Shown here: positions 16,500-18,553 of the stretch, piece by piece
How positions within the stretch are numbered: position 1 is the first letter of the stretch
Layout: each line of letters starts with the position of its first letter
Assembly (NCBI GenBank): GCA_048885865.1
Contig: JBHLLF010000023.1
Span: 1 to 44,544, forward strand
DNA from: Candidatus Hermodarchaeota archaeon
Lineage (GTDB): Archaea; Asgardarchaeota; Thorarchaeia; Thorarchaeales; Thorarchaeaceae
Direction of reading: 5' to 3'
DNA length: 44,544 bases
Made by a program: the position numbers and the translations under genes
Notes under the pieces: model-generated
The model's database searches: none
Seen by the model: the letters and a program-made list of their open reading frames with translations, nothing else
What the model was told of the DNA's origin: nothing

Positions 16500-16661
16500 T
16501 ATTGTTCACTTCAATTACGGCTCAGAGCCAAAGTAGGACATTTCGGGATTCATAGAATGAATGCAAAATAACCGCGCAATTGGTTACTACAAGCATACAA
16601 CCGAACTTATTCTCTACTTATTCTCTCAATCATCACTAGCTATCAAGCCGTGCTTATAAAA
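16500..16661 (-). promoter_or_regulatory. Promoter plus structured 5' leader, copy A
   Basis: ttttataagcac TATA; blocks taagtagagaata, ttcggttgtat, gaatcccgaaatgtcct shared with 18384-18553. Confidence 0.7.
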
Positions 16662-16776
16662 GTGCGCTCTTTTGCTTTATAGAGAAGAAACTGCCCCTAT
16701 TATTGTCATTTTTCTGACTGTAAGGCATATTAGGATTATTTCAGAAGTCATATTCTTCTGAGTTTCTGGACAATTA

Positions 16777-16803
16777 CCGGTTCAAATCCGGCCGTCCCGA
16801 CCA
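16777..16803 (+). repeat. tRNA-Tyr 3' end direct repeat (att-like)
   Basis: ccggttcaaatccggccgtcccgacca, 27/27 identical to 5382-5408. Confidence 0.92.
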
Positions 16804-17393
16804 ATCTTAGTTTTCCTGTCCAAACGCAGAGTCTGTCAGTTGTTAATGTAGTGCGTTATTGGTTACGCATACTTCTGTAAAATGCATTGCAATTGCATTT
16901 CTTGCATTCACTTTCGAAATCATCATGATTTTCGCGATTGTGTCCGCATGTACATAGATCGAAAGAACTGGTACTCATTTCTTCACCCCTGTAGGTTTAT
17001 GATGAGAAAGAAAGATTTCGTTATCCTTTCCATCACTTTCTTTATCGGCTAATTTTCCCAACTTTGTCTGTTGTAGCATTTCCAATATTCTATGAGGTCC
17101 ATATCCACTCTTTACTCGGGTTCTTCGATATCCAATCTTGGAATTGATTTTCATTTTCTCCATTCTTAATATCCTGCTATTATGAGAACAATCTATCTCA
17201 CAAACTGAGCCTGCGATTTCCGAAAAAACAGACACTCCAAATACCAGAGAAACGGGTCTGGTTTCAAGACATTCTTTGTTAACCTGTCTCTTTCATTCTC
17301 ACTTTCTGCAATGAGGCACCCTCTTGAGGGTTAATAAACTTGGGCATTTGCGAATATCAGTCAATACTCTCAGGAAGTTGGCAAACTTCATAG

Positions 17394-18344
17394 CTAAACG
17401 TCAGTTTCGAATATGATTCCGAGAGAACGGACAAGCTCCTTGTATCGATTACGAATCGTGACTTCCGTAACGTGTGAAACTTTTGCTATCTCTCTTTGTG
17501 TCCGCCTATCCTCCTCAAGTATACCAGCTATGTATAATGCAGCTCCTGCAATGCCACCGGGATCTTTTCCCACTGTTATTCGTCCTTCTTTGGCCCGTTG
17601 GATTATTTCAGTGGCTTTTCTTATGGTTCTTCCTTCAAGACCAAGATCGGAGGAAAGTCTTGGTATCAAGTCCTTTGCAGACGCAAGTGGCACTTCGACA
17701 TTGACTTTTGAAAGAACCAACCGTACAGCCTGACTAATCTGCTTTCTATTCGTTTTCGCCTCAGTCACAATCTCGTCTAGGCGTCTTGGAATTCGGTGAA
17801 TTCTACAAGCAAGGTAGATTGATGCTGCAACAACAGAATCAATACTTCTTCCTCTCACTAGTCTCTTTGCCAGGGCTTTTCTATATATGAGAGCTGAAGT
17901 TTCTCTGGCATCGCGTGGAATCCCAAGTTGTGAGGATAGTCTTTCCATCTCACTCATGGCAAAGCCAAGGTTTCTGTGAAAAGAACTATGGACCCTGCTT
18001 CTGATATGCCACTTTCTCATTCTGTAGATGGCTGCACGTGTATTGGTTGTTAATGCCCTGCCACTTGCATCCTTGTTTCGCCAATCAATTATGGTTGAGA
18101 GTCCCTTGTCCGCAATGCTGAGTCTCATTGGCGCTCCAGTTCGTGCTTTTGCATCCCTTTCTTCTGAAGTGAATGCTCTCCACTCAGGCCCTCTATCAAC
18201 ATTCCGGTCCGAAGCCACAAGCCCGCATGAAGTACAAACGCTTTCTCCACGAGCATAATCTCTAGTAAACAAGCTCTCTCCACAGCCTATGCATACCTCT
18301 CTTTTGCTAATACGAGTCTTCTTGATTCCAACTAAATCCACCAT
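17394..18344 (-). CDS. tfb: Transcription initiation factor B, paralog B
   Basis: Same motifs and length (316 aa) as paralog A; about 80% identical by hand count. Confidence 0.96.
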   Translation of the reverse strand: MVDLVGIKKTRISKREVCIGCGESLFTRDYARGESVCTSCGLVASDRNVDRGPEWRAFTSEERDAKARTGAPMRLSIADKGLSTIIDWRNKDASGRALTTNTRAAIYRMRKWHIRSRVHSSFHRNLGFAMSEMERLSSQLGIPRDARETSALIYRKALAKRLVRGRSIDSVVAASIYLACRIHRIPRRLDEIVTEAKTNRKQISQAVRLVLSKVNVEVPLASAKDLIPRLSSDLGLEGRTIRKATEIIQRAKEGRITVGKDPGGIAGAALYIAGILEEDRRTQREIAKVSHVTEVTIRNRYKELVRSLGIIFETDV

Positions 18345-18350
18345 GCCCTT

Positions 18351-18383
18351 CTACCCCTCTGTGACTGGCTTTTCTTTTGTCAT
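18351..18383 (-). CDS. 10-codon uORF MTKEKPVTEG upstream of tfb B
   Basis: Start context aatgacaaaagaa matches copy A aatgacagaagaa; stop 6 nt before the tfb ATG. Confidence 0.45.
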   Translation of the reverse strand: MTKEKPVTEG

Positions 18384-18553
18384 TCATATTCACTTCGCCA
18401 AATTCGACTTGGATCAAAAGCAGGACATTTCGGGATTCGTACGATGGTCTATCAAAGTAATATAGCCGAAAGGTCGGTCAATAAAAGAATACAACCGAAT
18501 ATATTCTCTACTTAATTTCTCAATCAGGGCTCACTATCGTTCTGTGCTTATAA
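18384..18553 (-). promoter_or_regulatory. Promoter plus structured 5' leader, copy B
   Basis: ttataagcac TATA and the same conserved blocks as copy A. Confidence 0.7.

Follow-up and report, generated by a model that had tools for sequence, protein, structure and literature searches.

Genes and features of the locus

The window, a 44,544-nucleotide stretch of a Thorarchaeota genome (contig JBHLLF010000023.1), contains a duplicated element that is in each case the TATA-anchored 5′ leader of an operon for a TFIIB-family transcription factor. Both copies lie on the minus strand. The region is an array of gene cassettes with tRNA-Tyr 3′ fragments between them, and the features around the two copies (A and B) are as follows.

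16653..16659, minus strand: TATA box of copy A, with a purine- and GC-rich, BRE-like stretch immediately upstream
16520..16631, minus strand: leader copy A (helices P0, P1, P2 and P3 and an apical hairpin), extending from the predicted transcript start through the outer helix
16506..16512, minus strand: Shine-Dalgarno-like site of the 51-aa ORF, from sequence reading
16344..16499, minus strand: 51-aa ORF with a single predicted helix (residues 12-30), member of a small Thorarchaeia family
15831..16343, minus strand: 170-aa ORF with no assigned family
14868..15818, minus strand: tfb copy A (TFIIB family)
18547..18553, minus strand: TATA box of copy B, in conserved columns
18407..18525, minus strand: leader copy B, without the extra helix Px
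18351..18383, minus strand: 10-codon upstream ORF of copy B, at the conserved AUG position
18354-18359, minus strand: Shine-Dalgarno-like site of tfb copy B, within the end of the 10-codon ORF
17394..18344, minus strand: tfb copy B, 83% identical to tfb copy A
16774..16803, plus strand: tRNA-Tyr 3′ fragment (att-like), between the A and B units
8524-8573: other tRNA-Tyr 3′ fragments
5332-5408: intact tRNA-Tyr gene

The copy A leader is followed by the 51-aa ORF, the 170-aa ORF and then tfb A, with 700 nt between leader and tfb, and the copy B leader by the 10-codon ORF and tfb B. The 51-aa and 170-aa proteins match no family in Atlas, Pfam or NCBIfam; the 170-aa ORF and the small ORF are fused in one homolog (P0025). 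The cassette array (5332-16803) is anchored on the tRNA-Tyr gene and its cassette order is shuffled among relatives, the simplest of which has tRNA-Tyr, tfb and leader only. A conserved basic 62-aa ORF (16978-17163, minus strand) lies between tfb B and the tRNA fragment and is found in several relatives. Elsewhere in the window there is a weak tRNA match that ARAGORN missed and that perhaps contains an intron (30458-30515, plus strand).

A GC-rich stretch with a consensus like GAGCNCWC occurs just 5′ of each TATA box (16660-16668 and 18554-18562, minus strand); it resembles the human TFIIB element more than the A-rich element usual in archaea.

The duplicated leader

Copies A and B are 71% identical across 199 nt (E about 2e-20), and a search of the whole 3.58-Mb assembly found no third copy of this form. 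The original prediction placed structured leader RNAs at 16500-16661 and 18384-18553. The place is right, but these intervals take in the TATA box and the promoter spacer, so the RNA would begin near 16631 (A) and 18525 (B), the likely transcript starts given a TATA box at fixed distance. The TATA columns are conserved at 0.98-1.0 and keep that distance to the leader in 51 homologs, many of which were selected by requiring the box. At the other end, the leader stops about 20 nt upstream of an AUG that has a Shine-Dalgarno-like site. We propose a structured 5′ untranslated leader, acting in cis, whose first base is the transcription start and whose last lies some 20 nt upstream of the first AUG. 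This leader, 110-135 bases long, lies ahead of extra tfb copies in one Asgard group.

Three conserved blocks had been described, ttcggttgtat among them, and both copies have them at the expected place on the minus strand.

Copy A, minus strand: 16608-16620, 16595-16605 and 16535-16551
Copy B, minus strand: 18502-18514, 18489-18499 and 18422-18438

The pairings read as described: P1 is aagtag/ctactt in A and aagtag/ctgctt in B (a U-A to U-G change), P2 is ttcgg/ccgaa, and the variable middle forms a hairpin in each copy (agtaacc/ggttatt in A, ccga/tcgg in B). The internal-loop letters between P1 and P2 (agaata / atgtc) are identical in the two copies. The P1/P2 fold is the minimum-energy fold of copy A, but copy B prefers another one, and the single-sequence folding z-scores of the copies are marginal (-1.0 to -2.1).

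Homologs and phylogenetic range

Homologs were collected from covariance-model matches and pattern scans, including 24 matches from a metagenome pattern scan. The covariance model finds the leader in 28 of the 86 genomes of the family, in two Thorarchaeia genera only; none of the 124 genomes searched from other families of the phylum has it. The 48 distinct full-length homologs likewise come from two Thorarchaeia genera. Most (34 of 48) lie directly before one lineage-specific tfb clade, and another 12, with copy A among them, reach tfb through the small ORF and/or the 170-aa gene. Of the remainder, one is on a contig that ends in the 170-aa gene and one precedes a broken small ORF. The link to tfb that was first suggested is supported for this conserved leader; copy A does not stand directly before the gene. 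The leader was found nowhere but in the 5′ position of these operons. A single match on a viral contig lacks the 3′ block and was judged to be chance.

TFBs with the leader form one clade (support 0.99) whose subclades track the leader types, so A and B are paralogs of long standing, each of which has retained the leader. The TFB paralogs of other genera are all more distant. This assembly encodes seven TFB paralogs (contigs C4, C23, C24 and C55), and other genera have 4-7.

Conservation relative to neutral sites

The yardstick set in the original prediction was the synonymous sites of the two tfb genes, and the leader exceeds it. Between A and B, 67 of 124 four-fold sites agree (0.54), against 0.87 and 0.78 for the end blocks (range 0.78-0.87) and 0.96 for the stem columns. 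Between clades, four-fold sites agree at 0.39-0.53 and stems at 0.71-0.95, and leader conservation is above that of four-fold sites in every clade pair. A recent neutral duplication is rejected as the source of the two copies, because four-fold sites are down to 0.54 and the A and B types predate speciation. A miniature transposon was also discarded: there are two copies only, always at the same promoter position.

The unchanged internal loop could be taken as a sign of a ligand pocket. That reading is not supported across clades, where internal-loop columns agree at only 0.34-0.72, near neutral, so we see no invariant pocket.

Evidence for and against a selected RNA structure

Covariation was the check named for the proposed fold, and its outcome is mixed. 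A tree-aware all-pairs test on the tfb leaders, which has low power, gives no significant pair, but event counts and variable helices favour pairing. Among the 23 close homologs 90% of cells pair, with a covariation score of 0.140 versus 0.139 in shuffles. None of these homologs has a two-sided change in P1 or P2, and their one-sided changes are mostly to G-U. In the basal helices, 39 of 78 substitution events keep pairing where 26.6 are expected (p about 0.003); the other half break pairs, and the only two double changes are both in P2. In three of the four groups (A, B and g5, but not the third clade), substitutions fall in paired columns less often than a uniform null predicts (0-1 of 100); the effect does not exceed a rate-preserving null (6-25 of 100).

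The duplex between the 5′ and 3′ blocks exceeds shuffles in 23/23 A/B-type leaders, versus 7/48 in the control. It is weak elsewhere, exceeding shuffles in 8/19 leaders of genus g5 and 1/6 of clade 3. Helix Px can form in 16 of 17 B-types despite changed sequence (12 at p<0.05); it is deleted in A-types and lost from copy B of this genome. Apical domains are rebuilt between clades, and the mean folding z across leaders is only -1.36. The alignments are sequence-only and can hide register shifts.

We consider it quite likely, from these comparisons, that the leader carries a selected RNA structure, a judgement held at that level because the related homologs are not independent and the structures and helices were picked on the same sequences. 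Given such a structure, a regulatory role is highly probable. The duplicated leader element is real; it is a lineage-restricted motif with moderate structural support and probably a regulatory role, and literature searches found no description of this leader.

A related leader in the KamA operon

A second operon in the array, with a small ORF and a KamA-family gene, carries a related leader with the 5′ and 3′ P1 blocks of the tfb leaders.

12351-12357: TATA box of the KamA-operon leader
12184..12331, minus strand: related leader of the small-ORF/KamA operon
11993..12202, minus strand: small-ORF paralog of 69 aa with an uncertain start codon; it overlaps the start of the KamA-family gene
10893..11996, minus strand: KamA-family radical SAM gene (TIGR00238 above cut-off)

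On the KamA-family gene, every specific aminomutase model scores below cut-off. Its leader opens with the purine block of the tfb leaders and closes with their pyrimidine block. Among 423 TATA-like sites in the genome, the 5′ block occurs at this offset in four, three of which are A, B and the KamA leader, from which the pattern itself was drawn. The KamA leader has three inner hairpins with nine pairs showing two-sided change, and its covariation score (0.281 versus 0.209) is above all 500 shuffles. A helix that crosses P1, kept with different sequences in genus g5, may form a pseudoknot. The all-pairs test gives no significant pair on the 12-13 KamA leader sequences; the KamA leaders available number 25.

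The ends of the tfb and KamA leaders likely share common descent, to judge from their blocks. We put this no more firmly because neither profiles nor covariance models cross-match (best E 0.03): the tfb leader model (R1) misses the KamA leaders and the KamA leader model (R2) misses A and B. In two genomes (loci L202, L206, L198 and L207) there are two units of KamA-type leader and small ORF, each with broken-looking kamA pieces after it.

The small peptide, predicted to form one helix, belongs to a small family (16344-16499 and 11993-12202, minus strand) found in 39 of 86 family genomes and seven genera. It occurs standalone, before KamA, or fused to the 170-aa domain.

Proposed mechanism and alternatives

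The reading that we favour, tentatively and at somewhat under an even chance, is a post-transcriptional switch in which the pyrimidine block pairs with either the 5′ end or the start region, probably in response to a protein. Sequence comparison gives moderate support to a long irregular stem, which the 5′ purine-rich block would close by pairing with the pyrimidine-rich block 89-114 nt downstream, and which would enclose a lineage-specific apical domain. This closed state would hide the 5′ end and leave the Shine-Dalgarno/AUG region accessible. Were something to occupy or remove the 5′ block, the pyrimidine block could pair with the purine-rich start region and reduce translation. Consistent with such an exchange, 17 of 23 A/B-types have a best alternative partner for the 3′ block that overlaps the Shine-Dalgarno/start region, the first codons of the 51-aa ORF are complementary to the 3′ block, and the predicted fold of copy A flips to start-region pairing. 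The alternative start-region helix exceeds shuffles in only 3 of 48 leaders and is not seen in g5.

A protein trigger, perhaps encoded by these very operons, or processing of the 5′ end is likelier than a metabolite, since both strands conserve more of their sequence than pairing requires and yet the junctions and apical domains have been remodelled. That the small helical peptide acts as effector is conjecture. The leader would coordinate the accessory TFB, the small helical peptide and the KamA-like enzyme within the tRNA-Tyr cassette array. It is doubtful that the tfb and KamA leaders form one RNA-switch family through which the small peptide controls the accessory TFB post-transcriptionally, or a new metabolite riboswitch class that does likewise.

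The blocks might instead act mainly as DNA elements. A site for a repressor, or one specific to a TFB paralog, would span +1 to +18, another would lie inverted farther downstream, and the pairing would be a by-product. Archaeal repressors frequently bind across the start site, the +1..+21 block is almost as invariant as the TATA box and stays conserved even where basal pairing weakens, and compensatory changes are nearly absent from P1 and P2. Two DNA sites would sit poorly with a block spacing that varies continuously from 89 to 114 nt without helical phase, and neither block is palindromic. The inner helices keep pairing through sequence change and the one-sided changes are mostly G-U, which also speaks against it; we regard this explanation as possible, on balance doubtful.

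A passive 5′-terminal stem, guarding the mRNA from 5′ decay or bringing the 5′ end near the start codon without switching, would fit a genome in which such leaders recur. A sister tfb paralog (contig C4 of this genome, G000, 13781-13866, plus strand; loci L135-L153) and the opine-dehydrogenase operon carry long folding leaders that our tests find unrelated in sequence. The sister paralog is found across the family, and its leader is about 110 nt with a long basal helix that varies across genera and exceeds shuffles in 9/15. R1 does not detect the sister-paralog leaders, though P2-P3 resemblance is apparent by eye. The other leader, before an opine-dehydrogenase/B12-enzyme pair (5493-5621, plus strand), is a different, strongly conserved one with nested helices and 18 aligned homologs; it has no Rfam match at gathering score. 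Long mRNA-stabilising 5′ UTRs are reported in methanogens (PMC5378194). A stem of this kind appears unlikely when both P1 strands conserve much more primary sequence than pairing requires and share it with the KamA leader.

We find it quite improbable that the leader is a new riboswitch for a metabolite or ion; an amino acid or osmolyte with a connection to the KamA-like and B12 enzymes would be an example of such a ligand. The folds are complex and possibly pseudoknotted, amino-acid-modifying enzymes are neighbours and the anti-start helix is a candidate expression platform. Against these points, unpaired junction letters vary across clades, apical domains are rebuilt, the range is two genera, tfb is an unusual target and riboswitches are rare in archaea (PMC5473149).

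The marginal fold, rich in A/U and G-U, could also be an RNA thermometer or a salt-sensitive structure that frees the start region under stress, and the predicted fold of copy A does differ between 37 and 50 C. In other archaea, alternative TFBs have roles in stress responses. This role is highly improbable: copy B shows no temperature-dependent fold change, the consensus fold leaves the Shine-Dalgarno site uncovered, and no pairing to that site is conserved.

A separate small RNA, set free from the operon through termination or processing, deserves very little credence. In its favour are the self-contained fold from the predicted start and the short U runs near its 3′ end; against it, the element was never seen away from the operon 5′ position and has no C/D or H/ACA features, and a bacterial-type scan shows no terminator-like site there.

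If the switch that we favour, or another regulatory role of the leader, is correct, it would show post-transcriptional control of an accessory basal transcription factor. To our knowledge almost no cis-regulatory RNAs of Asgard archaea are catalogued. The surprise is lowered because long folded leaders are common here (sister tfb, opine-dehydrogenase operon), and the weight of the finding is limited by the narrow range of two genera and a putative function. In vitro testing is straightforward, given 48 homologs whose natural variants cover three architectures.

Comparison with known RNA classes

Scans against Rfam 15 at gathering and E-value thresholds returned only tRNAs and one chance match (E 4.7), and no family for the leader; the original prediction had recognised no riboswitch consensus. 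The leader sits where a riboswitch would, behind a promoter and 5′ of the genes that it may control; conserved unpaired junction nucleotides, also expected of one, are not seen (internal-loop identity of 0.34-0.72 between clades).

The lysine riboswitch is found before kamA in some bacteria. Here too a KamA-family gene follows the related leader, and a similar purine run opens P1, but the leader is 50 nt shorter, with neither a five-way junction nor conserved pocket letters. We exclude this identity: the five-way junction with loop E, the kissing loop and the conserved pocket are absent, and Rfam gives no lysine riboswitch score even at E up to 1-10.

Copy A resembles archaeal box C/D and H/ACA RNAs in having box-C-like and box-D-like words near its ends and a long stem with an internal loop. 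A box C/D guide is excluded, as these words change in B, g5 and clade 3, and a box H/ACA guide is excluded by eye, with no ACA tail or apical kink-turn where one is required. A hammerhead ribozyme in the KamA leader was rejected: only some copies have the first core word, the position that requires GAAA reads GACC, and Rfam has no match. Likenesses by eye to T-box, SECIS, kink-turn and SAM-III were dropped, as the needed letters are not conserved. An RNA thermometer would pair the Shine-Dalgarno site in the consensus fold, which does not occur here.

Some archaea commonly have long 5′ UTRs (PMC5378194), and those of methanogens (Methanolobus psychrophilus, and mtaA/mtaC of Methanosarcina mazei; PMC5378194) are, like this leader, longer than 100 nt, with proposed control of stability or translation. 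We see no sequence link to them, and here there is a defined motif common to paralogous tfb operons of an Asgard lineage. The tfb leader differs from the orphan cis-regulatory motifs that comparative genomics has revealed (PMC2864571, PMC5737381) and from the leaders of ribosomal-protein genes (PMC7247131) in having TFB as its target, no Rfam match and weaker covariation than is usual for them. They resemble it in being conserved, folded and invariably 5′ of one gene family, and the usual model for them is protein autoregulation (PMC2864571, PMC5737381, PMC7247131).
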